A stretch of DNA of 58,978 nucleotides, filler included, from Ferroacidibacillus organovorans (GTDB taxonomy: Bacteria > Bacillota > Bacilli > Alicyclobacillales > SLC66), in NCBI RefSeq assembly GCF_001642725.1. It is 7 parts of 7 records of this genome, joined end to end, with 100 filler letters (N's around TTAATTAATTAA, not from the genome) between each part and the next. Parts side by side here need not be neighbours in the genome. Positions count along the whole stretch, not along the records: positions 8,869 to 17,613 come from NZ_LSUQ01000083.1; 6 more parts are not named here. The stretch is one strand, 5' to 3'. Each line of letters begins with the position of its first letter. Positions within the stretch are counted from its first letter, which is position 1. Made by a program: the position numbers and the translations under genes. The notes under the pieces were generated by a model. It saw only the letters and a program-made list of their open reading frames with translations, was not told the DNA's origin and did not search any database. Positions 3,941 to 38,614 of this stretch are shown here, piece after piece.

Positions 3941-5101
3941 TCACGAATTTAAAAATCGATCCATGCGCTCAAACGCCCGCTCAAGTTGAGCGAGTGACGT
4001 CGCGTAGGAACAGCGGACGAATCCTTCGCCAGACGGCCCAAACACGGCGCCTGGGACGACCGCGACACGCTCCACCTTTAAAAGCTGCTCCGCGAACGCC
4101 TCGGAAGAAAGCCCTGACGCGCGGATGTCGGGAAACGCGTAAAACGCGCCTTGCGGTTCATGGCAAGCGAGCCCGATCTCGCGCAGGCGCTTGACGACAA
4201 AGCGTCGCCGCTGATCGTACTGCTCCACCATCGCTTGCCGCTCGCGCTCGCCGTTTCGCAGTGCCTCAAGCGCCGCCATTTGCCCCATGATCGGCGCGCA
4301 CAGCATCGTGTACTGATGAATCTTGACCATCGCCGCAAGCACGTCGCGCGGCGCCGTCGCGTAGCCGATGCGCCAGCCCGTCATCGCGTACGCCTTTGAC
4401 ATGCCACTGATCACAATCGTGCGCTCTTTCATGCCAGGCAGGCTTGCGATGCTTACGTGGCGCACCCCATAGGTGAGTTCCGCGTAGATCTCATCGCTGA
4501 TGACCAACAGGTCGTGCGCAATCGCGACGCTTGCAATCTGCGCGAGTGCCGCGCGATCAAGAATCGCCCCCGTCGGATTGTTTGGAGCACACAGAATCAG
4601 CACCTTGCTGCGCTTTGTCAGCGCGGCGCGCAGGGCGTCTTCCGTCAAGCGAAACTGATCCATCGCGTGTGTCGCAATCTTTTTCACCGTCGCCCCGGCG
4701 AGAATCGCACAAGGTTCATACGAAACATACGCCGGCTCCGGGATCAAAACCTCATCCCCCGGCTGGATCACGGCGCGCAGCGCGAGATCGATCGCCTCAC
4801 TCCCGCCAACCGTCACCAGCACCTCATCTTTTGGGTCATACGATAAGTCAAACGTTTCAAGGTATTGCGCAATCGCTTCGCGCAGCGCGGGCAATCCCGC
4901 ATTCGCCGTGTAGGTTGTGTACCCGCGCTCGAGCGCGTAAAAGCACGCCTCGCGCACATGCCACGGCGTGACAAAATCAGGCTCGCCGACGCCAAGCGAG
5001 ATGACGTCATCCATTTGGCTTGCCAAATCAAAAAAGCGGCGAATCCCGGATGGCGCAAGTTGTTCGACGAGAGGCGAGAGCTTTCCTTCAAACGCGCTCA
5101 C
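3941..5101 (-). CDS. alaT: PLP-dependent class I/II aminotransferase (YugH/AlaT-like)
   Basis: GEPDF, PNNPTG, DEIY and SKAYAMTGWRIG motifs; overlaps the upstream Lrp gene as in yugG-yugH. Confidence 0.85.
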   Translation of the reverse strand: MSAFEGKLSPLVEQLAPSGIRRFFDLASQMDDVISLGVGEPDFVTPWHVREACFYALERGYTTYTANAGLPALREAIAQYLETFDLSYDPKDEVLVTVGGSEAIDLALRAVIQPGDEVLIPEPAYVSYEPCAILAGATVKKIATHAMDQFRLTEDALRAALTKRSKVLILCAPNNPTGAILDRAALAQIASVAIAHDLLVISDEIYAELTYGVRHVSIASLPGMKERTIVISGMSKAYAMTGWRIGYATAPRDVLAAMVKIHQYTMLCAPIMGQMAALEALRNGERERQAMVEQYDQRRRFVVKRLREIGLACHEPQGAFYAFPDIRASGLSSEAFAEQLLKVERVAVVPGAVFGPSGEGFVRCSYATSLAQLERAFERMDRFLNS

Positions 5102-8768: not shown

Positions 8769-8868
8769 NNNNNNNNNNNNNNNNNNNNNNNNNNNNNNNN
8801 NNNNNNNNNNNNTTAATTAATTAANNNNNNNNNNNNNNNNNNNNNNNNNNNNNNNNNNNNNNNNNNNN
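8769..8868. other. Artificial contig spacer
   Basis: N-run, TTAATTAATTAA (stops in all six frames), N-run; 100 nt. Confidence 0.99.
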
Positions 8869-8988
8869 AGCGAGGGACTCATGGTTGGATTCCGAGCGGC
8901 TTGGGGTTATGCGGCAGGGACGCTTGGGCTCACACTGCTTTTGTTCGCATGGCTCGCTATAAAAGTCCGTTTGAGACAGAGGGTATGA
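8869..8988 (+). CDS. C-terminal fragment of a membrane protein (possibly MFS), 5'-truncated
   Basis: Manual translation: SEGLMVGFRAAWGYAAGTLGLTLLLFAWLAIKVRLRQRV*. Confidence 0.5.
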   Translation, partial: SEGLMVGFRAAWGYAAGTLGLTLLLFAWLAIKVRLRQRV

Positions 8989-9454
8989 AGACTTAAACAT
9001 CATTTCTTCTCGTACACAGAAAGGAAGTTGTCAGCCCTTTTCCCGCGGACACAGCATGATATTAAGTCAAGAAAGTAGACACGATAAACAGAGACGATTG
9101 ATCATTTTAAATCCTTGGTTAGGTCGATCCACCTTCTGTGGTTTCGACACAGAATTCATTTTCTAAAATATCCTGATCCAGATGTCCAGGACAAGAACAT
9201 CCCTTAACATTCTCACCACATTCTTCGTTAGAAAGTCCGCGCTTCGTACATCCTTTCATCGTGATGCGGTGATACATAGCCAATCGACGAATGGATTTTC
9301 TAACGATTGTAAAAAACTTCGATTGAGTGCCCGGAGTGGACATGGATCCAGAGTTTGGCCCTATCGGAATCTCTCGGACGGTGGTGAGGGAATGTTATTT
9401 GAATGGGTGAGGCAGTCGTGGCTCGGATTATCGATCTATCACGGAACTGCAATT

Positions 9455-9895
9455 ATGAAGCCACTATGGATTGGGATCGCGTTTATCGCATTTGCCCTTG
9501 TGGCGGCGCGGTTTGACATTCGGGAACGGCGAATTCCAAACGTCCTGAACCTGTTTGGACTGGGGCTCTTTTTGGCGTTGCACTTCGGTGTTGGTTCGGG
9601 AGAAGAGGCGTTTTTCGCCTTCGTTTGCACCGGACTGCTGCTTCTCGTTCCGACGCTTCTTGGACTCTGGGGCCAGGGGAACTGGAAGATGGCCATGGTT
9701 TGCGGGCAGCACTCGGTGTGCTGCCCACGCTGTTCATATGGTGACTGGCGTTGCTCTTTGCCAAGGTCTATAGTACGGCGGTCAAAAAATACGTGGTTCG
9801 ATGGCTACCAACCGACACCAAGAAGGGGACTGCCCATAGTGGTTTTTGTCCTCGTGTCGACGATCCTCTTCTGTGCAGTGATGTCTTTATTCTGA
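9455..9895 (+). pseudogene. A24 prepilin peptidase (TadV/CpaA-like) pseudogene
   Basis: DIRERRIPN motif present; the GxGDxK motif reads GQGNWK. Frameshifts near 9705 and 9827, with TGA at 9742-9744 in the hydrophobic frame. Confidence 0.75.
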
Positions 9896-9927
9896 AAGTT
9901 AATAGCGCCCTGAAAGGGGGCCTCTTC

Positions 9928-10763
9928 ATTCGATTGCATGATGCGTCCAACTGATATCTGACCCTCCAGGCGCAGGAGGGGTATTCGCCCTATACAGTAA
10001 AGGCGTACCGGGTGCAGCATCACCAGTTGATAAAAGACATCGGGGACACGATCACGTCGGAACAACTGCGGGAACATCTGCAGCAGCACATGCATTTGAA
10101 AGCGAGCAGTCTCGGGTATAATGTACGGGCCATCATGAGTTTGTTCAATTCAAGTGGTTGGTGGAAGAGGATCTCCTCGTGCGCAATCCGACCATGAAGT
10201 TGAAGGAACCGAAGCTTGGAAAACGTGTGCCAAAGGCACTCACCATCGATGAACTAGAAATGTTGCGGGATTCTTGCACCAGTGTCTTGGAGCATGCGCT
10301 CGTGGAATTTTTCTTCGCCACGGGATGTCGGGTGGGGGATATTCACAAACTCGACCGCAGTGCAATTGATTGGCAGCGTGGCTGTGTGAATGTGATAGGG
10401 AAAGGAAACAAAGAACGAGAGGTGTACTTCGGCTCGAAGGCCCGCATATGGCTTCAACGGTATTTGAATCATCGTGGTGATAAGGATGCGGCGCTGTTTG
10501 TAACCGAGAGGAAACCGCACCGGATATCGATTCATCAGATTGAGTATATTTTCAATCGGATCGCGAATCGATCCGACTTGCAAACCAAGATCAGCCCCCA
10601 CAAGATTCGCCATACCCTCGCAACCGTATTGCTCAATCAGGGCGCACCCCTCGTTGCCGTGCAGTCTATTTTGGGCCATGAGAAACCGGAGACCACGCAG
10701 TTGTACGCATCCCTCAGTGGCACCGTACGCCAACAAGCATATCAGCGATATTTCGTGCAGTGA
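9928..10763 (+). pseudogene. Tyrosine recombinase / integrase (XerD-like fold), disrupted in the N-terminal domain
   Basis: Catalytic residues intact: TGCR, GKGNKER, HKIRH, LGH, TTQLY. The N-terminal part (QEGYSPYTVKAY...) has ATT after the RBS, TGA at 9952-9954 and a TTCAA duplication at 10144-10153. Confidence 0.88.
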
Positions 10764-10770
10764 TGAATGT

Positions 10771-10799
10771 CTGCAAAACCATTCGTCGCCGTGTATACT
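10771..10799 (+). promoter_or_regulatory. Putative sigma-A promoter pointing into the gene array
   Basis: CTGCAA-N17-TATACT directly after the integrase stop. Confidence 0.4.
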
Positions 10800-10831
10800 G
10801 AGGGAAACGATGCTAGGAGAGCGCGGGAAAA

Positions 10832-10935
10832 CTGGCATTGAGCGATCCGCACACGGGGACTTTTATGCAGATATATTGCATGATCATGCGAACCGAGCGA
10901 GTCGGCTTACGCCGATTTCGGGCAGTTTAGTGCAG
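10832..10935. repeat. Array hairpin site 1 (integrase-proximal)
   Basis: GCATTGAGC/GTTTAGTGC outer arms; centred core TGCATGATCATGCG at 10877-10890. Confidence 0.65.
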
Positions 10936-11025
10936 CACGGACAACGAAAATTTGGAGCGCAAACAGGATATATAAATAAAACGACGAATTCAATTAATGG
11001 AATACGCAATGTCAGGAGGGTTTAT

Positions 11026-11136
11026 GTGCAAGTACCTTCGATTTTTGATGCGGTTGTTATCCTAGGGGGAAGTCTGCCCTTATTCGGGTATTCAATTGCA
11101 TACAAAGATCAGGGAATCGTACAGCGTTCTGACTAG
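11026..11136 (+). CDS. 36-aa small ORF (leader peptide or truncated gene)
   Basis: AGGAGG RBS and GTG start; MQVPSIFDAVVILGGSLPLFGYSIAYKDQGIVQRSD. Confidence 0.4.
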   Translation: MQVPSIFDAVVILGGSLPLFGYSIAYKDQGIVQRSD

Positions 11137-11170
11137 CTACGCCAGTTAAGGCGTGTTGAAATCGGAATAC

Positions 11171-11203
11171 AAAGCACCTGATCACGTGGTCAGGTGCTTT
11201 TTT
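11171..11203 (+). terminator. Intrinsic terminator / attenuator 34 nt before the MFS start
   Basis: AAAGCACCTGAT-loop-GTCAGGTGCTTT followed by a T-run. Confidence 0.75.
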
Positions 11204-11236
11204 GCGTTGAAAAATGACCGAAGGGAAGATCATTCA

Positions 11237-12478
11237 ATGAAATTCAATACAACAATCTTGAAAAACAGAAACTTCTTATCTTACTGGAGCGGTGGACTAA
11301 TTTCAGAACTTGGAGATGCCATGTTTTTGCTGGCACTCAATTGGATGGTGGTTGAGAAAACAGGTTCGGGATTAATTTTAGGAACCATCATGGCGTGTAT
11401 TTCACTGCCTCAAATTTTACTCGTCACGATTGGTGGTGTGGTTGCAGATCGCTTGAATCCGAAATGGGTCATGATTGCATCGGATGCTGTACGCGGACTG
11501 ATAATGGCTTTTCTGCTGGTGATGAGCTTTCGCGGTGTGGTGCCGATTTGGACGTTGTTTGTGATGGCAATTGTGTATGGCTGCATGGATGCGGCATTTT
11601 TCCCTGCACAATCGGCATTTCAACAAAGACTTGTTTCTTCAGAGCAATACACGCAGTCCTTCGGACTCTTGATGATTGGTTTTCAGGCGGCAGCGATTGC
11701 AGGACCTGTTATTGGCGGTGCGTTGATTTCCAAATGGAGTTATCGACTTGTCATTGCAGCCAACGGACTTTCATTTATTTGTTCGATTCTGCTTCTGCTC
11801 TTGGTTAAACCGATTCCCATCGATTCCGATGACGAAGAAAAAGACAAATTATCATTTTCATCCGACATCCAAGTCGGAATTCGATATGTACTGAAGAATC
11901 ATCTGATCTTAACGACATCCTTAAGTGCGTTCTTGGTCAATGCGTGCGTGCAAGCCACATTCATTGCAATGCCGTTCTTGGCAAAACAAGCTCACCTGGG
12001 TGCACAAGGATTTGGCTTGATGAATATGGGCATTGGAATCGGTGGTGCTCTCGCAGCTCTCTTTTTTGCTTTCATACGGATTCAAAAGCCAACACCAAAA
12101 ATGACCTTGCTTGCTTGTTTCGTCGAAGGGTTTGCGTTTCTTGGACTCGTCGTTGCAAGGGACCTATGGTTGCTTATTGGTACGATGCTCGTCATTGGCA
12201 TTATGGAAGCTGTCGTGAACACAATTGCTCCAAGTGTAAATCAAAAAATCATTCCGCCACAACTGATTGGGCGAGTCATTAGTTTTATGATTGTTTTAAT
12301 GTCGGGATCGGAACCGCTGGCACGTGCATTTTCAGGATGGATGATTCAATGGTCAGGAGTAACGGTTTTGTTAATTTGTACGGGCATTCTTGAAATTGTC
12401 GTAGCTGTGATCGGCTATTTCATGCCTGTTGTCCGAAATTATGGCTTGGAACAGCCCCCGATCGAATCCTATGATTGA
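11237..12478 (+). CDS. MFS transporter, DHA3 / Mef-like efflux type
   Basis: About 12 TM segments; LKNRNF...SELGD, GGVVADRLNPKWVMIASD and GRV motifs. Start reassigned to MKFNTT. Confidence 0.88.
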   Translation: MKFNTTILKNRNFLSYWSGGLISELGDAMFLLALNWMVVEKTGSGLILGTIMACISLPQILLVTIGGVVADRLNPKWVMIASDAVRGLIMAFLLVMSFRGVVPIWTLFVMAIVYGCMDAAFFPAQSAFQQRLVSSEQYTQSFGLLMIGFQAAAIAGPVIGGALISKWSYRLVIAANGLSFICSILLLLLVKPIPIDSDDEEKDKLSFSSDIQVGIRYVLKNHLILTTSLSAFLVNACVQATFIAMPFLAKQAHLGAQGFGLMNMGIGIGGALAALFFAFIRIQKPTPKMTLLACFVEGFAFLGLVVARDLWLLIGTMLVIGIMEAVVNTIAPSVNQKIIPPQLIGRVISFMIVLMSGSEPLARAFSGWMIQWSGVTVLLICTGILEIVVAVIGYFMPVVRNYGLEQPPIESYD

Positions 12479-12496
12479 TGAAAATCACAGCACAGG

Positions 12497-12522
12497 GGAC
12501 ATCCTTTGGGGTGTCCTGTTTT
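12497..12522 (+). terminator. Intrinsic terminator of the MFS gene
   Basis: GGACATCC-TTTG-GGGTGTCC-TGTTTT. Confidence 0.7.
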
Positions 12523-12562
12523 ACTTTCTATGGTTTATATCCTCAAATGTCGAGTAGCAAAT

Positions 12563-12670
12563 CTATTGCAGTATGGTGCGAAACTGCAGTAGCCGTCTCC
12601 GGTTGACGGGTGTATGATTATACAGGCACGCATGGAGACGCTTACTGCCGTTTCGAGCAATGTTCAATAG
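12563..12670. repeat. Array hairpin site 2
   Basis: CTATTG..CGAAAC.GCAGTA..CGTCTCC / GGAGACG..TACTGC.GTTTCG..CAATAG arms; core TGTATGATTATACA at 12611-12624. Confidence 0.85.
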
Positions 12671-12721
12671 TGATTCACTGAACGTAATCGGTATATTTAG
12701 TTGAATTCGGAGGGGAAATGA

Positions 12722-13468
12722 ATGTCTACAAAGGTAGCTATAATTACAGACATCCATGGCAACAGCCCCGCATTACAGGCTGTGTTGAAGGACATCGACA
12801 GTCAGTCTGACATTGAGCACATCTACTGCTTGGGAGATATGGTGGCAATCGGACCTGACACTGATGAGGTCTTGGTTGCATTGTTCGAGCGAGAAGATGT
12901 ATCCATGATCACCGGAAACCATGAAGATGCGGTGTTGGCAATTTTTCGAGGTCAAGAACCAGCGTCCCGTGACGAGGAGCGAGCACACCACGAGTGGATT
13001 GTCGAGAACACCGATGAAGCCTTACTTCGAAGCCTGTTGGACTTGCCCCGTTCATTAAGAATTGAACACGAAGAGAAGAGCCTGTTATTGGTCCACTACC
13101 ACTTAGATGCCGCTGACAACTTCCTGCCAATTGACCGAGACCCTTCAGCGGATGAGCTGGATACAATCTACAATGGAGACAAGGCTGACATAGTGTGCTT
13201 TGGACATCATCATCCCGTTCACTTCTTCAAGTCTGCCACAAGAACATATCTGAATCCTGGCTCATTAGGGTGTTGTGACCGCCCTGTAGCTCGATACGCC
13301 ATTCTGGACATCGACTCGCAGGATATTGCAGTTGAAATGAAAGAAATCCCATACGATAATCGCCAGTTTCTTTTGTCGTATGAGCAATTAGGGGTACCTG
13401 CAAGGGATTTCCTGCTCATGGCGTTCCACGGCAATCAGCACATGGGTATCCATGAAGAAGAGTCATAA
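12722..13468 (+). CDS. Metallophosphoesterase (calcineurin-like, YfcE family)
   Basis: DIHGN, LGD, GNHE, GHHH and NPGS motifs. Confidence 0.92.
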   Translation: MSTKVAIITDIHGNSPALQAVLKDIDSQSDIEHIYCLGDMVAIGPDTDEVLVALFEREDVSMITGNHEDAVLAIFRGQEPASRDEERAHHEWIVENTDEALLRSLLDLPRSLRIEHEEKSLLLVHYHLDAADNFLPIDRDPSADELDTIYNGDKADIVCFGHHHPVHFFKSATRTYLNPGSLGCCDRPVARYAILDIDSQDIAVEMKEIPYDNRQFLLSYEQLGVPARDFLLMAFHGNQHMGIHEEES

Positions 13469-13551
13469 TGCTTGGGTCGCCTCTTTGTGTATGAACATGC
13501 ATGTGTGTTGAGGAAGTCCTTATGGCGATCTTGGGCAGGAAAGTTGAAGAA
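13435..13551. repeat. Array hairpin site 3 (left arm overlaps the upstream gene end)
   Basis: GTCATAA/TTATGGC and CCTC/GAGG arms; core TGTATGAACATGCA at 13488-13501. Right end CTTATGGCGATCTTGGGCAG resembles site 1. Confidence 0.72.
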
Positions 13552-13578
13552 CGAATCAAATTAAATCGGGTGATGAAA

Positions 13579-14073
13579 ATGGGCATTAGCAGCAAGATAG
13601 AAGTGGCTCCGCCATTGACTCAAGATGATCAGGAATGGCTCAGGACCTTGTGGCTGAGTGAGTGGGGCGGAGAAACAATGGTATCCAAAGGTAAAACCCA
13701 TTACTTTCAGGATTTAGACGCCGTGATTGCTTGGGCTGATGATGTTCGAGTTGGGGCGGCAACCTATAATCTTGAGAATGATGGATGCGAACTGATGAGT
13801 ATAAATGCCATAGTGGAAGGTTTAGGCGCAGGGAGTGCCCTGATTTCGGCAGTCGAACAAGCGGTACATAAGGTTGGAGTAGGTCGCATTTGGCTTATCA
13901 CTTCGAATGATAACTTGGATGCATTGAGATTTTATCAACGACGTGGATACCGAATAACTGCCGTATATCCCGACGCAATTGACGAGGCAAGGAAGCTCAA
14001 ACCGACGATTCCACAAATCGGGTATTACGAAATCCCAATTCACGATGAGGTTGAACTTGAAAAATTTCTTTAA
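13579..14073 (+). CDS. GNAT family N-acetyltransferase
   Basis: GLGAGSALI and NDNLDALRFYQRRGY motifs. Start placed downstream of hairpin site 3. Confidence 0.9.
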   Translation: MGISSKIEVAPPLTQDDQEWLRTLWLSEWGGETMVSKGKTHYFQDLDAVIAWADDVRVGAATYNLENDGCELMSINAIVEGLGAGSALISAVEQAVHKVGVGRIWLITSNDNLDALRFYQRRGYRITAVYPDAIDEARKLKPTIPQIGYYEIPIHDEVELEKFL

Positions 14074-14075
14074 GT

Positions 14076-14189
14076 CTTCTTCAGGTAACGGGTGCACATC
14101 TGCAATAGCGGTGTGTCTCGGCTTGTGTATGAATATACAGAACCTATGCGTGACACCTTGCGGCAGATAAGAGCAGTAAGGATACAGAA
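14076..14189. repeat. Array hairpin site 4
   Basis: TTCT/AGAA, ATCTGC/GCAGAT and GGTGT/ACACC arms; core TGTATGAATATACA at 14126-14139. Confidence 0.8.
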
Positions 14190-14217
14190 TATTACAAACG
14201 AATGGAGAGTGGTTTAA

Positions 14218-14688
14218 ATGCTAGCTACTGAGCTTGCTATAATTAATTTTCGAGAGGTTCGTCGCAGAAGCATAATTGTATGGAGGAGTGTTCCTTCAGA
14301 TTTCCTAAAATGGAAGCCTGACGACTCAGCTCTAACAATTGGTGAAGTCATCCGTCATGCATGGTCTACTCAGAAATATTACTACGAGTCGATTAAACTA
14401 GGACAATCTGCGCCAGTAACACATGACGAGTTCGATGACATTCCAGTAACGAGTATCGAAGAGGAAATTTCACTGTCAGTACCATACTTCGAGGATTTCC
14501 TAAACTACGTCCGGCAATTACCAAATAACGAATTGGAAAGTCGAATGATTGACCGTTCGGACGTTGGATATATACGACCATTAGGAGATTTTCTTTGTCG
14601 AATTGCGTACCACGAGTCCATTCACACTGGTCAGTTACTTCAATACCTTCGGTCTGCTGGTCTAGACCGTCCAGATATTTGGGACTAG
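14218..14688 (+). CDS. DinB/YfiT family protein
   Basis: WKP...TIGEVIRH and YHESIHTGQLLQYLR His motifs. Confidence 0.9.
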   Translation: MLATELAIINFREVRRRSIIVWRSVPSDFLKWKPDDSALTIGEVIRHAWSTQKYYYESIKLGQSAPVTHDEFDDIPVTSIEEEISLSVPYFEDFLNYVRQLPNNELESRMIDRSDVGYIRPLGDFLCRIAYHESIHTGQLLQYLRSAGLDRPDIWD

Positions 14689-14918
14689 ACAGCTTCCCGC
14701 ATTTTATCAGTTTCACTTGTGTCATTACGGTTGCAATAAGGCTGTTCACGTGGCTAGAAAAAAGGGAGGAGTCTATTGGATATCAAAATGTGAATTCTGG
14801 GAATCAAGATTTATCGATGGCTGACGATGTAGTTGACTCTATAGCTGATATCCCCATGGATTTTCTTGATTTACTGTGACCCTTAGCCCGAGTTGTTGTA
14901 TGGAAGGAGGAACGCCTT

Positions 14919-15559
14919 TTGATTGTAGCTTTTTGGGATTTGGATGGAACTATTCAAGACAGCGAGCCATTAGCAAGAGAAGGAACTTGTTACGGATTTC
15001 AACAGATACTTGGTAGAGAACCAACAGAACAAGAATTTGCTCAACTTATCGGGCGTCCTGTACCCATTGTTTACAAAGAATGGTTCGATGATGAGTTAGC
15101 ATTAAAAATTCTTGATACAGGAACACGTTTTTACCAAGAACACTCGATCAAATTCGTTGTTACCCTGGAATTCCAGATTTGCTCACTCTGATGAAACTGA
15201 GAGGTCATAAAATGGGAATTGTTTCGTCAAAGTGGCGATTCCATGTGATTAGTGAGCTGCAATCAAAGAAGCTGGATATGTTCTTTGACGTTGTCGTAGC
15301 CCAAGAGGACACATCACGACACAAGCCATACCCTGATCCACTTCTTCTTGCAGCGCGCAAATTGCAAGGAAATCCAGCAGATTGCGTATACATTGGCGAT
15401 CAACCATCAGACGTTCAGTCAGCAAGAGCAGCAGGTATGATCAACATCGCTGCACTGTGGGGAGACGGGAAGTTTGAACGTATACAAACAGCGTCTCCAA
15501 ATATCATGGTTCAAAATCCAGTGGAGGTTCTCAATTTCGTATCACAACTAAAGAGATAG
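14919..15559 (+). pseudogene. HAD-family phosphatase (PpaX/Gph-like), frameshifted
   Basis: DLDGT in the first ORF; KPYPDP and GDQPSD in the second. A one-base loss near 15143 joins them (..EH|LDQIRCYPGIPDLL..). Confidence 0.82.
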
Positions 15560-15621
15560 ATTTAACTGAGTTGCCATTGAATTAAAGATAAATGTAATAA
15601 ACTTACCATAGGGAGAGCCCG

Positions 15622-16278
15622 ATGATGGCAATTTACTCGACAATTTTATTTGATTTGGATGGAACGCTTACAGATCCTAAGGAGGGAATCACCAAATCAG
15701 CCCAATATGCCTTGTCTAGACTTGGGATCGATGAACCTGACCTCGAAGAGCTTACATCGTTTATCGGACCGCCTTTGCATGTCAGTTTTGAACAGTTCTA
15801 TGGTCTCGGTCCCTCAGAAGTAGAACGAGCCGTGATGTATTATCGACAAAATTATAAGGAAAGCGGGATATATGAGAACGTAATTTATGACGGAATTCCA
15901 GAGTTACTTAAGTTTTTAAAGGATAAATCTAAGCAGTTAGTTATAGCCACTTCAAAGCTTACTGTATTTGCGGAGCAGATACTCGTTCATTTTGAAATTG
16001 ATCAGTACTTCGACCATGTTGTTGGAAGTAATCTTGATGGGTCTCGGTCTAACAAGGCGGAGATAGTTGAGCATGCTATAAGAAAATTCAACGGTTCTCC
16101 GAAGTCTGATTTCATTATGGTCGGAGACCGTAAACATGACATTGTTGGGGCAAATGCGAATGGCATTGATTCAATTGGTGTTAAGTATGGGTATGGTTCA
16201 CAGGAAGAGCTTGTTCAGGCAAACGCAACCCATTTGGTAGATACTGTCGATGAACTATTTAATCTCCTGTCGCCGTGA
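15622..16278 (+). CDS. HAD-family hydrolase (phosphoglycolate phosphatase / 5'-nucleotidase-like)
   Basis: FDLDGTLTD, ATSK and GDRKHD motifs. Confidence 0.92.
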   Translation: MMAIYSTILFDLDGTLTDPKEGITKSAQYALSRLGIDEPDLEELTSFIGPPLHVSFEQFYGLGPSEVERAVMYYRQNYKESGIYENVIYDGIPELLKFLKDKSKQLVIATSKLTVFAEQILVHFEIDQYFDHVVGSNLDGSRSNKAEIVEHAIRKFNGSPKSDFIMVGDRKHDIVGANANGIDSIGVKYGYGSQEELVQANATHLVDTVDELFNLLSP

Positions 16279-16280
16279 GA

Positions 16281-16399
16281 TTCTTATACAGGTAACGGGC
16301 GCGAAAATCTCAGAAGGCCATAGGTTTGCAGTTGCATGAAGATGCGTTGTGGACCTCTTGGTTGAGGAAAAATGAAGGCAAACATTTAGTGTTCAAGAA
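16281..16399. repeat. Array hairpin site 5
   Basis: TTCTTATACA/TGTTCAAGAA and AGGTTTGCAG/TTGTGGACCT arms; core TGCATGAAGATGCG at 16333-16346. CAGGTAACGGG is shared with site 4. Confidence 0.8.
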
Positions 16400-16412
16400 T
16401 GTAAAAAAATAC

Positions 16413-16443
16413 TTGATCCTGACGCAATGTCAGGTTGTAGGAT
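16413..16443 (+). promoter_or_regulatory. MerR-type autoregulated promoter
   Basis: TTGATC-N19-TAGGAT with dyad CCTGAC-GCAAT-GTCAGG in the long spacer. Confidence 0.85.
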
Positions 16444-16481
16444 GAATTTGCCGGCAATATCAATGTGCACGAAATGAGGGG

Positions 16482-17234
16482 ATGATGGCGGAAAAAGAAC
16501 GATGGAAAGTGGGGGAATTGGCGAAGCTGACGGGCATTACGATTCGGGCGCTGCACCATTACGACCAGATCGGGTTGCTTGTTCCTTTTTTGCACTCTGG
16601 CGCTGGTCACAGACTGTATTCGGGAAAGGACATCGCTCGTCTGCAACAAATCATCTCCCTAAAGCAGTTGGGTTTTTCACTGGACGAAATCGGGGCTTTG
16701 CTCGATAACCCCAGTTTTCGTCCGGACAAAGCAATTCGAATGCAGTTGGATCGATTGGTTCAACAAATCCGAATTCAGGAAGACTTGCGGAGCCGACTGG
16801 AGCGTCTATATGAGTTGGTTCAAGCTCAACGAGAACTGACTGGAGAGGAATGGATCAAAATCATCGAGGTGATGAAAATGACGGAGAAGTATTTTACTCC
16901 AGAGCAGATGGAGAAACTCAAGAAACAAGGGGAACTTCTGGGAACCGAGAAAATCAAAGAGGTTGAGAACGAATGGCCAAGCCTGATTGCCAACGTACGC
17001 GTAGAACTGAAAAAGGGGACGCCTCCTGATAGTCCTGAGGTACAACTGTTGGCCAAGCGGTGGAAAGAACTCGTCAACCTCTTTACAGGCGGTGATTCTA
17101 GCATTACGCGATCCGCTGAACAATATTACGCGGAGAACCCGGACCGAGCAGCGGAATTCGGCATGGATAAGGAGTTGTGGCAGTACATCTCGAAGGCCAT
17201 GGCCACCAGTTTAGTGACTGATGACCCCAAGTAA
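16482..17234 (+). CDS. MerR-family regulator with TipAS-like C-terminal domain (Mta/TipA/SkgA type)
   Basis: [43 protein letters not shown] in the C-terminal domain. Confidence 0.9.
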
Positions 17235-17256
17235 GATGTAGGATAATTCTACAACA

Positions 17257-17298
17257 GGCCCTTGGTTCTTCACTTCCCAGAACCAGGGGCTCCTTTTT
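17257..17298 (+). terminator. Intrinsic terminator after the MerR gene
   Basis: GGCCCTTGGTTCT...AGAACCAGGGGCT followed by CCTTTTT. Confidence 0.75.
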
Positions 17299-17380
17299 AT
17301 GCTGTTTCCCACATATCAAATACTTTCCGCCACCTGGGTGTATACTAACGGTAAATCCATCCAGAGAGGATGATTCACCC

Positions 17381-17613
17381 GTGAACTCCAACAACGGCGG
17401 CCATAAATTCACCAACCGCCTCATCCACGAGAAATCCCCATACCTGCTTCAGCACGCCCATAACCCGGTCGACTGGTACCCTTGGTGCGACGAGGCGTTC
17501 CGCATCGCTCGCAGGTTCAATCGTCCCATTCTTTTGTCCATCGGCTACTCGTAGCCCTGCGGGGCTACGAGTGGCAATATACGGTAATGGAGTAATATAT
17601 GGACCTGTCACTG
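17381..17613 (+). CDS. yyaL: YyaL / DUF255 thioredoxin-domain protein, 5' part, interrupted by a 51-nt coding gap (17552-17602) and cut by the contig end
   Basis: Missing from the ORF track. GTG start gives [57 protein letters not shown], then TAG. ACC TGT CAC TG (TCHW) resumes in frame at 17603. Confidence 0.88.
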
Positions 17614-17713
17614 NNNNNNNNNNNNNNNNNNNNNNNNNNNNNNNNNNNNNNNNNNNNTTAATTAATTAANNNNNNNNNNNNNNNNNNNNNNNNNNNNNNN
17701 NNNNNNNNNNNNN
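17614..17713. other. Artificial contig spacer
   Basis: N-TTAATTAATTAA-N. Confidence 0.99.
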
Positions 17714-32864: not shown

Positions 32865-32955
32865 GGAGAGATGGCCGAGCGGTTGAAGGCACTCGTCTTG
32901 AAAACGAGCAACGGTGATGAGCCGTTCGTGGGTTCGAATCCCACTCTCTCCGCCA
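32865..32955 (+). tRNA. tRNA-Ser(TGA)
   Basis: GGAGAGA/TCTCTCC acceptor stem, CTTGAAA anticodon loop, long variable arm, GTTCGAATC and encoded CCA. Promoter TTGAAC..TGGTATACT lies upstream. Confidence 0.97.
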
Positions 32956-36482: not shown

Positions 36483-38614
36483 GGAATGTAGTACACCTCC
36501 ACCTCATCGCCCTGCGCAATCGGAGAAGTGAACTCGGCTTCTTCTCCGTTAATTTTCATGATCAGCCGTTCACGGCCGTGCACGCCTGCCCGAAGCGTTT
36601 CGGATAGGAGGAGTACCATTGTGCTCATCGTGGGCCCTGTTTCGAGACGGCCTTCCGTAGTGATGACGTCGCCTTGTTCAAGCGTGTCCTTCAGCTCACA
36701 CGGTGCGCCGTTTCTTAGGATTCGCTCGATCATCGGAATTTCTCGCTTTATCCCGTTTACAAGCACTGTCATGCATTCCCCCGCGCGATATAAAGCGGCT
36801 TTTAGCGCGTCAATGACGGTAGGTGGTGCGGTTGCGGCGCCTTTTAGCGAGAAGGAGAGTCCCTCCACAATCGGCTCATCCCAGGAAAAAAAAGGTTCAA
36901 TGAGCATGGTTTGCCACTGTAATTCAAGGGGTTTTTCATCGACGACAACAGCGATTCGCTCGACGACGTTGCGACCGATAATCGACTCGATCCACTCGCC
37001 AATCGTTGGCCATTGGGTCACGATGACGTCGCGGTCGCTGAGTTTACTGTGTAGTGTGGCAACACGATCATTCTTTAAGATTCGCGGCGACACGCGTTGG
37101 ACGGTTCCATTCACCGTTATCGAGAGTGGTTTTACTGTCAACACGGACGCAATCGTTCCGATTGCGTCCTTTCCGTCTTCGCCGACGGCGACGCTAATCG
37201 TGTCACCTGCGTCAAGTGTGTCATCAAGCAGACACGGGAGTCCATTTTTTTGCACGACACCCTGCGTTCCAGTCGTCCCAGGAATGGAGCGAATCTCTTG
37301 ATTCACTTCAACGACAAGCGCATTCCCTGTGCGCGCCCGCAAGCGTCGCAGATCGAGACCACACTCGGAAAGTGCGTCACCTACGGTCATGAGCCGCATG
37401 GCAAAGAGGCGGTGGCTGCGGCCGTCAAAGCGCACGGTGACGGGTGTAATCTCCGAGTTTTCAGCGGTGAGCGCGATACCGATGGGCGTGACGGATTCCG
37501 GCCCAAATAACGTTTCCACACAGCCTTTGGCCTGATGAATTGAGACGCGGTCGCGCACGCGGATGCGATCGAGTGGAAGTCCGAGTTTGTCGGATAGCTC
37601 TTTTTCGAGAAAAGGTGTTTTTGCGCCGCCGCCGATCAACATGAGTGCGTCAGGCGCTTTCTCGTTGAGGCGAACGATTTCATCGGCGATTTTTTGCGCA
37701 AGATCAGATACGGCAGGGCGCAGCGTCGCCAACAACTTTTTACAGGAGAGGTGACGCACTTGACCAAGGACGTCCTCCACGTCGATGGAATCCATATCGA
37801 GGGAGCGCTTGACGCGCTCTGCGACAGGAAAATCGAGCAAATACGCTTGTTCGAGTGCTTCGGTAATCTCGTCGCCGGCGACGGGGACCATTCCGAAAGA
37901 GCGCACAGAGCCGTCGCCTGTCAGCGCGATGTCGGACGTTCCAGCGCCGATGTCAATCAAAGCGATGTTCAAGTTTCTCATGCTTGAAGGCACCAGCGCG
38001 TAGAGCGCCGCGATCGGTTCTAACGTAAGGCCGCGCATCATGAGCCCGGCATGCGTCAACGCCGCATCGAGGGATTCAATAACGGCGCGCGGCAAAAACG
38101 TCGCAATGAGAGAGACATTCGCCTCGTGTCCGCTTTGTCCAACGAGGCTTGCCATCCGTTCGCCATCAAGCGTGTAATCGCGAACACTGTATCCTACACA
38201 GTGAAGGAGTCCAGACGGTTTGCGATTGGCGCGCGCCTCAAACCCCCATTTCGATTTGGCCGATTCGATGGCGACCATGTGGAGCTGGTGGATATCTTCT
38301 TCTGTACACGGCACAAGCAGCGGAATCGTCGCGTTGGCGGTCACCGTTTGCAGTGAGCGCCCCGCGGCCGCAACGGAGACTGCTTTGAGTGACACGCCAG
38401 AGGCATTTTCGAGCGCGCGCGTAACCTCTTGAATCACCGCAGAAACGGAGCGAACATCGTGAATCTGTCCGTCGCGCATCGCGCGGTCACGATGTTCCTG
38501 TGTCTCTACCGCGTGGATCTCAATCCCTTGCGCGGATTTAGAATACAGAAGCCCGGTCACGCCACGCGTCCCAATATCGAGCGCGTACGCCCACTCGCTC
38601 ATCTTGTTCACCAC
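36473..38614 (-). CDS. FtsA/PilM-like actin-fold ATPase with long C-terminal extension
   Basis: ALDIGTR, LEPIAA, DIGAGTSD, AERVKR and IGGG motifs; about 330 extra residues. Confidence 0.85.
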   Translation of the reverse strand: MVNKMSEWAYALDIGTRGVTGLLYSKSAQGIEIHAVETQEHRDRAMRDGQIHDVRSVSAVIQEVTRALENASGVSLKAVSVAAAGRSLQTVTANATIPLLVPCTEEDIHQLHMVAIESAKSKWGFEARANRKPSGLLHCVGYSVRDYTLDGERMASLVGQSGHEANVSLIATFLPRAVIESLDAALTHAGLMMRGLTLEPIAALYALVPSSMRNLNIALIDIGAGTSDIALTGDGSVRSFGMVPVAGDEITEALEQAYLLDFPVAERVKRSLDMDSIDVEDVLGQVRHLSCKKLLATLRPAVSDLAQKIADEIVRLNEKAPDALMLIGGGAKTPFLEKELSDKLGLPLDRIRVRDRVSIHQAKGCVETLFGPESVTPIGIALTAENSEITPVTVRFDGRSHRLFAMRLMTVGDALSECGLDLRRLRARTGNALVVEVNQEIRSIPGTTGTQGVVQKNGLPCLLDDTLDAGDTISVAVGEDGKDAIGTIASVLTVKPLSITVNGTVQRVSPRILKNDRVATLHSKLSDRDVIVTQWPTIGEWIESIIGRNVVERIAVVVDEKPLELQWQTMLIEPFFSWDEPIVEGLSFSLKGAATAPPTVIDALKAALYRAGECMTVLVNGIKREIPMIERILRNGAPCELKDTLEQGDVITTEGRLETGPTMSTMVLLLSETLRAGVHGRERLIMKINGEEAEFTSPIAQGDEVEVYYIPWN

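Follow-up and report, generated by a model that had tools for sequence, protein, structure and literature searches.

A recombinase gene and five sites in one array

The whole 58,978-nt stretch of Ferroacidibacillus organovorans DNA that was analysed (the window) carries on its plus strand, at 9928-10763, a decayed tyrosine recombinase gene of the Xer family, which was recognised by PF00589 and three-frame translation and which is located at the head of a gene-cassette array. The C-terminal ORF of this gene (10158-10763) matches the Pfam model PF00589 at 1.2e-36, and according to the three-frame translation the start codon is gone, an in-frame TGA is present near 9952 and a frameshift lies near 10140-10160. 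An intact relative of 280 aa (L030:3221-4060) shares 96% identity across 201 C-terminal residues, and a second recombinase copy with the same defects was found at G000:C61. The recombinase gene is a pseudogene in this genome, and therefore the array is probably frozen.

In the NCBIfam comparison the recombinase was assigned to the Xer family, with 208 bits for XerC, 185 for XerD and 186 for XerA, all of them under the equivalog cut-offs. The closest solved structure was XerD (1A0P, 4e-31), and the match to IntI4 (2A3V) was limited to 65 C-terminal residues (E 1e-10). The model TIGR02249 reached 84 bits against a cut-off of 265, in two stretches between which model positions of about 180-232 were skipped. 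The recombinase does not have the IntI-specific insertion in the catalytic domain; such an insertion is characteristic of integron integrases according to PMC8138268.

The head site, site 1 (10827-10950; 49.5 bits and E 5e-7 with the site model R1), contains an apex at 10877-10890, a left arm at 10906-10919, the hexamer GGGCAG at 10920-10925 and a right arm at 10926-10939, and its left core is absent. The range given in the preliminary description starts at 12563 and thus omits site 1, although the core of this site was listed there. Cassette 1 (10926-12660) is composed of a 245-nt leader, a gene for an MFS transporter (ORF 11153-12478; Pfam MFS_1, 1.4e-38) and site 2; the terminator scan detected a terminator-like hairpin in the leader (11171-11200) and another one belonging to the MFS gene itself at 12496-12517, 5′ of site 2. 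Site 2 (12561-12682; R1 match of 64 bits), the only strongly palindromic site of the window, has its left core hexamer GGTGCG at 12575-12580, its apex at 12611-12624 and its right core hexamer GAGCAA at 12655-12660. Cassette 2 (12661-13538) consists of a calcineurin-like metallophosphoesterase gene (12722-13468; Pfam Metallophos_2, 1.2e-21) and site 3 (13438-13563; 67 bits). The sequence of site 3 was read directly: its apex is located at 13488-13501 and its right core hexamer GGGCAG at 13533-13538, the left core is missing at the usual distance, and GGGTCG is found 8 nt before the apex.

Cassette 3 (13539-14176) carries a GNAT acetyltransferase gene (within 13501-14073; Pfam Acetyltransf_1, 1.4e-10) and site 4, and an 81% identical copy of it is held by G004:C12, where the homology begins at the hexamer. 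Site 4 (14077-14201; 71.9 bits) has the left core hexamer GGGTGC at 14090-14095, the apex at 14126-14139 and the right core hexamer GAGCAG at 14171-14176. The following cassette block 4 (14177-16382) comprises site 5 and three genes annotated with Pfam, namely a DinB-family gene (14218-14688), a frameshifted HAD hydrolase gene (14919-15559) and an intact one (15622-16278); no R1 match separates these genes, i.e. none occurs between 14201 and 16284. The last site, site 5 (16284-16384; 35.3 bits, E 4e-4), was likewise read directly and has the left core hexamer GGGCGC at 16297-16302, the apex at 16333-16346 and a degenerate right core at about 16377-16382. All of these cassettes and sites are located on the plus strand.

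The five apex sequences reported in the preliminary description are present as written on the plus strand, starting at 10877, 12611, 13488, 14126 and 16333. The pattern TGYATGANNATRCR has six matches in the window compared to 0.06 expected, a number reached in 0 of 100 shuffles; the sixth match, at 1732 on the minus strand, lies inside a coding sequence on another contig.

Anatomy and distribution of the sites in related genomes

The search with the site model yielded 111 copies, 109 of them distinct, in loci from 17 related genomes; a second class of sites with a different interior also exists. A full site of about 114 bp is built of a left core-like element, a central palindrome and a right core. 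On the left, the hexamer GGGnGC lies between two 14-nt arms, and this element is followed after about 15 nt by the 14-nt apex palindrome TGYAT-N4-ATRCR. About 17 nt past the apex the right core begins, with the left arm sTTmTKGCRCWWTC, the hexamer GGGCMG and a right arm that forms an inverted repeat, so that the central palindrome is situated about 40 bp from each hexamer. In the head sites adjoining the recombinase gene, only the apex and the right core are present. Conservation is highest in the apex, with 1.5-2.0 bits per column versus 0.03-0.3 bits in the presumed hairpin arms; the apex ends 36 or 37 nt before the end of the right hexamer in 97 of the 109 sites and starts 30 or 31 nt after the end of the left hexamer in 78 of them, conservation and spacing being in part a matter of ascertainment since the model includes the apex and both boxes.

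When the 14 nt left of the right core's hexamer were compared with the reverse complement of the 14 nt to its right, both followed one common consensus, position by position, over the 109 sites. The identity between the arms was 0.434 when they were aligned in register; a shift by 1 or 2 positions lowered it to 0.27-0.28, and shuffling of the right arm to 0.277. In the best single site the arms agree at 11 of 14 positions. The outer-arm consensus recurs in the left box, with an identity of 0.321 versus 0.23-0.28 at other offsets. That both arms share one consensus suggests that a single recombinase would recognise them. The symmetry of the right core arms exists at the level of the consensus only (0.434 for cognate and 0.417 for non-cognate arms) and therefore is not sufficient to tell whether the arms are bound as double-stranded DNA or form a small conserved hairpin.

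Of the motifs described previously, CAGGTAACGGGYGC at the left of sites 4 and 5 was recovered as a member of the family-wide box GGGnGC, and the G(G/A)GCA-like motif at the right ends as a member of the box GGGCMG. These boxes are direct repeats in the same orientation and not inverted ones, the left core being the weaker. What had been overlooked is that each conserved end is a copy of one dif-like inverted-repeat core, both copies being in direct orientation, with the crossover in the right one. The apex is indeed centred, as had been described, but the spacing in the 109 sites places it between two conserved core-like boxes and not within a hairpin.

Neighbouring sites are on the same strand in 54 of 54 pairs, with a median spacing of 961 nt, and the longest ORF is co-oriented with the sites in 42 of these pairs. 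The cargo resembles that of integrons and includes GNAT, DinB, NUDIX, PIN and APH proteins, methyltransferases and DUFs. Head sites behind the recombinase were found in G000 (twice), G001, G002 and G004, more weakly in G011 (E 0.094), and also in named Alicyclobacillus records. Behind the recombinase orthologues of named Alicyclobacillus and Sulfobacillus records, a stretch ending in AACGGGCAG and then a cassette-type start follow within about 50-170 nt; in five of them an apex-like palindrome was recognised by eye 36-37 nt before the end of the hexamer. In a Trueperaceae record (L091), a locus beside a 56% identical recombinase orthologue contains six spaced 13-6-13 inverted-repeat sites, whose outer arm, TTnTGCG, is similar.

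Folding and covariation of the site arms

The preliminary description had proposed selection on single-strand folding of the sites. In an attC-like site, one strand would fold into an imperfect hairpin, and the recombinase would read this fold and exchange a single strand, as is the case for integron integrases. The complementary strings quoted in the preliminary description were all found in the sequence; complementarity beyond chance was not, since four of the five sites in the window fold no better than shuffled sequences and no covariation between the arms was detected across the 109 related sites in the pairing, swap and shuffle tests. Compared with 200 dinucleotide shuffles, the top strands of sites 1 to 5 had, in this order, DNA-fold z values of -1.44, -4.50, +0.65, -0.09 and 0.00, and z values of -1.52, -3.91, -0.86, -0.02 and -1.04 with RNA parameters. 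Site 2 also scored -3.81 in the DNA fold of its bottom strand and -3.8 in the cognate-versus-swapped duplex comparison, and it belongs to the roughly 6-7% of sites that are strong palindromes and speak for a folded site. In unconstrained folds the hairpin is capped by the apex at sites 2, 4 and 5 and not at sites 1 and 3.

Over all 109 sites the mean fold z was -0.34 for the top and -0.29 for the bottom strand. In 83% of the sites the fold of the top strand is better than that of the bottom strand, which could be taken in favour of an attC-like site; as the z values of the two strands are equal, this bias was read as base composition. Swapping the arms between sites left the energy practically unchanged (-13.22 versus -13.05 kcal/mol, p 0.82; inner arms -4.61 versus -4.43, p 0.76), and the cognate partner ranked among the top 5% of partners at only 8-12% of sites. 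The consensus is weakly palindromic, with 49.7% of the cells paired in register versus 36.5-39.2% when slid by 1-3 columns, and the apex pair columns 67/102 hold T-A 39, C-G 23, T-G 16 and non-pairs 29 (of 107), both of which agree with a hairpin. However, the paired cells of the mirrored hairpin amount to 49.8 +/- 0.6% in shuffles, and 306 of 500 shuffles reach the observed value.

The preliminary description had itself made selection on single-strand folding dependent on significant covariation, and this claim consequently fails. A structured RNA, which had been named as the alternative, receives no better support: the RNA-fold z values are unremarkable, the only match in the window at the Rfam gathering threshold is a tRNA (32865-32952), and none of the six matches obtained at E up to 5 in the region 10700-16500 falls on a site. 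Chance alone is expected to produce short complementary strings on either side of a conserved palindrome; those of the present sites failed the shuffling and swapping controls, which calls for caution with such patterns.

Crossover position and mobility of the cassettes

Twenty homology pairs between different arrays were hand-picked from 93 listed rows of at least 200 bp, and in 14 of these 20 displayed pairs the homology boundary, read by eye from the printed flanks, lies at most 5 nt from the hexamer of the right core. A 1.08-kb cassette common to G000:C61 and G027:C50 has a boundary of this kind on either side. The copies of the recombinase with its head site at G000:C83, G000:C61 and G004:C27 are homologous through GGGCAG and diverge immediately after it, and a metagenome contig (run X3) matches L030 at 4052-4224 and then differs exactly past the hexamer. 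These boundaries show that the crossover falls at the hexamer of the right core; a cassette therefore comprises its own right arm, the gene and that part of the site which extends to the next hexamer, and the right arm moves with the downstream gene.

The negative folding tests, the symmetric arms and the boundaries at the hexamer were counted in favour of a double-stranded site. Two further observations count against it and would suit an attC-like site. Firstly, cassettes differ in the sequence to the right of the hexamer, a variation that integrons tolerate because just one strand is exchanged. Secondly, group II introns have inserted in the sites, with Rfam matches in L030 (RF00029, RF02012) and related copies in three G012 loci; they lie on the cassette strand, and both junctions that were read fall in the hexamer of the left core. 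Group IIC-attC introns in integrons target folded attC strands and enter the bottom strand of attC, as described in PMC3001079. Given also the direct orientation of the end boxes and a recombinase that does not have the insertion of integron integrases, an attC-like site appears unlikely.

Less probable still is a MITE- or REP-like repeat, i.e. an element of about 114 bp with inverted termini that spreads alone into intergenic DNA with the recombinase as a bystander. The outermost 14-nt arms are in fact inverted repeats of each other, copies are numerous (18 in G000 and 28 in G012), and several site-bearing genomes do not have a close recombinase orthologue, as in the site-rich G012, G027, G032 and G035 with best matches of 28-36% identity, which also counts against the double-stranded site with a dedicated recombinase. 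However, the recurring unit is a gene plus a site, the homology breaks inside the element at the hexamer and not at its ends, the right arm accompanies the downstream gene, all 54 neighbouring pairs are co-oriented, and head sites are located directly behind recombinase orthologues in several species. A regulatory element, in which the apex serves as operator or RNA hairpin for read-through or expression of the next cassette and recombination is confined to the end boxes, is marginally less credible again: the conserved palindrome of the apex has the size of an operator, and an apex-like motif in the head sites of other species comes just after a TGGTAAAAT-like stretch, which we take to resemble an extended -10, but the promoter and terminator scan gave no promoter-like or terminator-like match on the sites, no Rfam family matches, the MFS cassette has its own terminator-like hairpin before site 2, and the constant distance of 36-37 nt to the crossover suggests a role in a recombination complex.

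Comparison with known recombination systems

The array works like an integron, although no molecular definition of an integron applies to it. As in integrons, a recombinase gene heads an array of short, co-oriented and mostly single-gene cassettes, each with a 3′ site; the crossover lies at the 3′ edge of the site, so that its last part is counted with the following cassette; the head site is built more simply than those of the cassettes; arrays without a nearby recombinase occur; and the cargo and the group II introns lodged in the sites are similar. In contrast to integrons, the recombinase is Xer-like, the sites do not form hairpins, the consensus has no GTTRRRY-type box, recombinase and cassettes share one strand in this window, and the hosts are Bacillota, among them named Alicyclobacillus and Sulfobacillus. 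The centre of the site is its most conserved part and the tip of attC is variable, a difference that had been noted correctly before. Like the group IIC-attC introns, one group II intron lineage has repeatedly inserted in cassette-array sites, here with the copies on the cassette strand.

With Xer/dif and pdif the array has in common an Xer-family recombinase and a core of two inverted arms around a 6-nt centre (14-6-14), and core-bounded genes appear in different contexts as they do for pdif modules, which are described in PMC12907356 and PMC7399989. It differs from both in the dedicated recombinase gene at the array head in place of the housekeeping XerC/XerD pair, and in the second core and the central palindrome of each site. 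Sites of the dif type serve the resolution of chromosome or plasmid dimers and depend on FtsK or accessory proteins; the many arrayed copies per genome would argue against a dif role. The sites of pdif modules alternate in orientation and are served by the host XerC/XerD, whereas all sites here have one orientation (54/54). In the plasmid resolution sites cer and psi, an Xer core is joined by accessory sequences bound by ArgR/PepA or ArcA. The sites described here likewise combine a short Xer core with one-sided accessory DNA containing a palindromic box at a set distance, and the apex, with its 5-4-5 palindrome TGnAT-N4-ATnCA, may resemble an ARG box in outline, although the third base of each half-site differs from the ARG-box consensus. 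Unlike in cer and psi, the accessory region (about 80 bp) ends in a second core, and the proposed function is cassette exchange and not multimer resolution.

A proposed composite double-stranded site

We lean, by a modest degree, towards a composite double-stranded site in which dif-like crossover cores are combined with a central accessory palindrome in an integron-like cassette array. These sites, as double-stranded DNA, are probably the substrate of a dedicated Xer-family tyrosine recombinase; dimers of it would bind the two cores, and the central palindrome would bind the recombinase or a host factor, which may shape the synapse or set directionality in the manner of the accessory sequences of cer and psi. 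The preliminary description had paired a protein-bound apex with selection for folding. The latter part fails; the former is compatible with the apex being the best conserved part of the site, and this conservation and the fixed distance to the crossover fit a putative protein-bound element. No published description of such composite cassette sites was found in the literature search.

More tentatively, at slightly less than even confidence, these arrays may represent a second, independently built kind of integron, in which a dedicated Xer-type recombinase works on double-stranded dif-like cores in Bacillota (Alicyclobacillus, Sulfobacillus) and simpler Trueperaceae relatives, the site of the Alicyclobacillus lineage having been elaborated into two cores and an accessory palindrome that would control synapsis or direction. 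Integrons are the textbook system for capture and shuffling of gene cassettes and are defined by IntI and folded attC sites; tools that seek IntI and attC folds would presumably miss such arrays. The layout of two cores and a palindrome offers a compact, testable case of accessory DNA possibly steering a simple tyrosine recombinase. If this interpretation is true, the cassette strategy evolved more than once, with an Xer-type enzyme and ordinary double-stranded cores achieving the same genetics, and it would extend to Gram-positive acidophiles.

Genomic organization of the cassette array

The array of interest is located on contig C83 of the F. organovorans genome (window 8869-17613). At the left of this contig lies a tyrosine recombinase gene (PF00589, 1.2e-36) whose start codon is lost and whose coding sequence is interrupted by a frameshift and an in-frame stop. 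On the same strand and 3′ of it follow an MFS transporter gene, a metallophosphoesterase gene, a GNAT acetyltransferase gene, a DinB-family gene and two HAD hydrolase genes, one broken and one intact, and the five repeats of the preliminary description stand between the genes of this array. Together with its head site and an upstream prepilin-peptidase remnant, the decayed recombinase gene is present in the genome in two copies of 96-97% identity (window 9425-10927 and contig C61, L052:14027-15527, minus strand), to which the stop and the frameshift are common and after which the first cassette differs. The broken HAD-family gene is split over two overlapping frames (90 and 126 aa; window 14919-15559), lies directly upstream of the intact paralogue (15622-16278) and is probably a frameshifted pseudogene. 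No convincing ORF was found in the leader of cassette 1 (window 10926-11236). At its end, just 5′ of where the MFS gene probably starts, stands a strong terminator-like hairpin (11171-11200, 13 pairs), and comparison with Rfam yielded only weak, sub-threshold sRNA matches in the leader. Since the window consists of draft contigs joined by N linkers and is not continuous, features are not to be read across the joins at 8769-8868, 17614-17713 and five further places, where runs of N flank the linker TTAATTAATTAA.

Site layout

The five central cores (apexes starting at 10877, 12611, 13488, 14126 and 16333, plus strand) were recovered exactly as listed in the preliminary description, and their pattern occurs six times in the window compared to 0.06 expected; the complementary strings and shared end motifs quoted there are likewise present in the window sites. 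For the analysis of a wider sample, a covariance model was built from 20 aligned sites of five genomes. With E values up to 0.01, matches were obtained in 20 of 41 related genomes, with 18 in the genome of the window, 28 in G012 and 13 in G027, and the fetched loci contained 111 matches, of which 109 were distinct. One match, G000:C86:1613-1725 (window 36849-36961, minus strand), was rejected as a false positive, as it lies inside a coding frame, does not contain the motif and was absent from the results of the local search.

Three peaks of information content were seen: at the apex, a 14-nt palindrome with 1.5-2.0 bits per column, at a right box with GGGCMG as its end, and at a weaker left box around GGGnGC; as the apex and both end boxes are part of the model, their conservation in the 109-site set is partly built in. 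In the right box, the 14 nt 5′ of the hexamer follow the same consensus, position by position, as the 14 nt 3′ of it when these are reverse-complemented. Arm identity is 0.434 in register, compared to 0.27-0.28 out of register and 0.277 with the right arm shuffled. The right box is thus a core with the classical tyrosine recombinase layout, its two arms inverted about a centre of 6 nt. A weaker copy in direct orientation forms the left box, whose hexamer is flanked on either side by the outer half of the right-box consensus (identity 0.321 vs. 0.23-0.28), and since both boxes point the same way, the ends of the site are direct copies and not inverted ones. Of the 109 sites, 97 have 36 or 37 nt between the apex end and the end of the right hexamer, and 78 have 30 or 31 nt between the end of the left hexamer and the apex start; this tight spacing places the apex in the centre, about 40 bp from each hexamer. 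Within the window the full layout is found in sites 2, 4 and 5, the last with a degenerate right core, while site 1, the head site, comprises only apex and right core, and in site 3 the left core is missing from its usual position.

Two variants were identified in related genomes. A short site without apex and inner arms (L056:15460-15540, G012) has the right arm of its left core running almost directly into the left arm of its right core, which results in a small perfect palindrome. The second class of cassette sites (L067, L061, L057, L030:6430-6560, L042) is distinguished by its interior, where an A+T-rich motif resembling TGCATAAATAT and the stretch GGGTTAT...TCGCTATC are found; its terminal CGGGCAG crossover is the same, and homologous cassettes may carry either class. 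No site matched a promoter or terminator consensus.

Crossover position and cassette unit

The recombinase gene and head site are homologous up to GGGCAG in the two pseudogene copies and the intact copy of the related genome G004, and they differ from the next base onwards; a metagenome contig of run X3, one of four sequencing runs compared (all consisting of contigs), follows the head of G004 up to the hexamer and is then unlike it. When the fetched arrays were compared all against all, 93 of the matches listed were at least 200 bp long, of which 20 pairs linking different arrays were displayed and their boundaries read by eye from the flanks. The homology boundary lies at most 5 nt from the right hexamer in 14 of these 20 pairs, and at both ends of one complete 1.08-kb cassette it is hexamer-proximal. 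A break at the left hexamer was seen in 4 of the 20, in two of them caused by an inserted intron. As homology breaks at the right hexamer, a cassette comprises its own right arm, its gene and the site as far as the following hexamer.

All 54 pairs of neighbouring sites are co-oriented, with a median spacing of 961 nt. The longest ORF between them has the same direction in 42 of 54, which is an undercount, since the match edges of the model clip some genes. The cargo is the usual mix of small enzymes, toxin-antitoxin and defence-type genes.

Tests for folding and covariation

According to an alternative model, one strand of the site folds and the fold is recognised. In its favour, the cassette starts vary, strong palindromes occur among a few sites and group II introns are lodged in sites. 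An ORF-less intron on the same strand as the cassettes lies inside a cassette site of G004 (L030:4700-5470; Rfam RF00029, 50.9 bits, and RF02012, 50.8 bits), with related copies in G012 (L062:2593-3229, L061:2643-2925 and L059:5018-5268), and both of the two junctions that were read come after the GGG of the left core's hexamer. A near-perfect long palindrome spanning the whole site is found in about 6% of sites, e.g. in site 2 (window 12561-12682) and at L059:2237-2360, and the rest are unlike these.

The preliminary description had proposed that the arms covary as folded hairpins around a conserved, protein-bound apex; of this, the folding and covariation of the arms did not hold. Top-strand fold z-scores of sites 1-5 were -1.44, -4.50, +0.65, -0.09 and 0.00 with DNA parameters (200 dinucleotide shuffles) and -1.52, -3.91, -0.86, -0.02 and -1.04 with RNA parameters, so that folding is mostly no better than chance and only site 2 stands out. 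For the 109 sites the mean z was -0.34 on the top and -0.29 on the bottom strand, with 6-7% below -2; the top strand folds better in 83% of sites, a difference attributed to base composition because the z-scores are equal on both strands.

In the 109-site alignment, neither column-wise mutual information nor an antidiagonal scan for pairing gave a Watson-Crick signal beyond the apex, whose stem provided the sole pair with real exchange (T-A 39, C-G 23, T-G 16, non-pairs 29 of 107). Swapping the right half (-13.22 vs. -13.05 kcal/mol, p 0.82) or the inner arms (-4.61 vs. -4.43 kcal/mol, p 0.76) between sites was without effect. Duplex energies, read by ranks and per-row z only because placeholder values for a few duplexes made the means unusable, placed the cognate partner within the best 5% of partners in 8-12% of sites. 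In a mirrored hairpin 49.7% of cells were paired compared to 49.8 ± 0.6% in shuffles, 306 of 500 of which reached the observed value, and sliding by 1-3 columns lowered pairing to 36.5-39.2%; the consensus is therefore weakly palindromic and the copies do not co-vary. No covariation was detected for a stem of the right core's left arm with the next cassette's right arm, where observed pairing equalled expectation in all registers. No selection for folding was seen in these sites, and the folded-site model is weakened to a less likely alternative.

The recombinase and its relatives

The recombinase is a member of the Xer family and does not contain the integron-integrase insertion, which is named as characteristic of integron integrases in PMC8138268. 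Homologues are recorded under the names Alicyclobacillus, Sulfobacillus and Bacilli MAGs. Within about 50-170 nt after the gene, the named Alicyclobacillus and Sulfobacillus records show ...AACGGGCAG and a cassette-type start, and in five of them an apex-like palindrome was seen by eye 36-37 nt before the hexamer end. At L082, L086 and L103, model matches lie upstream of the recombinase gene on the opposite strand. No accessory gene beside the recombinase is common to the 10 named loci; UPF0158 is located upstream in 3 of them. Downstream of the recombinase gene, 10 of the 20 Bacillota loci displayed contain a conserved stretch GGTAAAAT or GGCAAAAT, in many cases with a T in front of it, ahead of the first crossover site. 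It is located 40-110 nt after the stop codon in the named loci (L081-L089, L101, L103) and could be the promoter of the array.

Proposed mechanism and comparison with known systems

The best-supported reading is a composite double-stranded site in which dif-like cores for the recombinase are combined with a central palindrome at a fixed distance. The recombinase would act on the dif-like cores, and the central palindrome would bind the recombinase or a host factor. The make-up of the cores, the crossover in the right core and the absence of selection on folding are shown by the present comparisons; binding, the choice of strand and the roles of the apex and the left core are what we infer here.

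The system behaves like an integron, but of the two molecular definitions of integrons that were tested, the IntI insertion and a folded attC, neither was found. Group IIC-attC introns of integrons parallel the group II introns described here, and attC clusters without an integron are likewise known, comparable to site-rich genomes here, which may be without a close recombinase orthologue. With Xer/dif and pdif modules the sites share the core type, but unlike those modules the system has a dedicated recombinase, uniform orientation and a site of two cores plus palindrome. A literature search, with most subscription journals outside its range, found no description of cassette arrays with an Xer-type recombinase in Alicyclobacillus or other Bacillota.

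Recombinase orthologues 53-57% identical were also found in Trueperaceae records. Of four Trueperaceae loci scanned for repeats, a 13-6-13 site family was clear only in L091, where six inverted-repeat sites, which have the centre GCGCGC and an outer arm similar to that described above, lie 0.7-3.6 kb apart around a 56% identical orthologue (L091:309-9480); a strict search of the Trueperaceae loci for CGCGCG-centred palindromes, a wrongly assumed centre, had found none. On direct reading no apex was evident at the L091 sites, which may represent the same system, in simpler form, in a different phylum.
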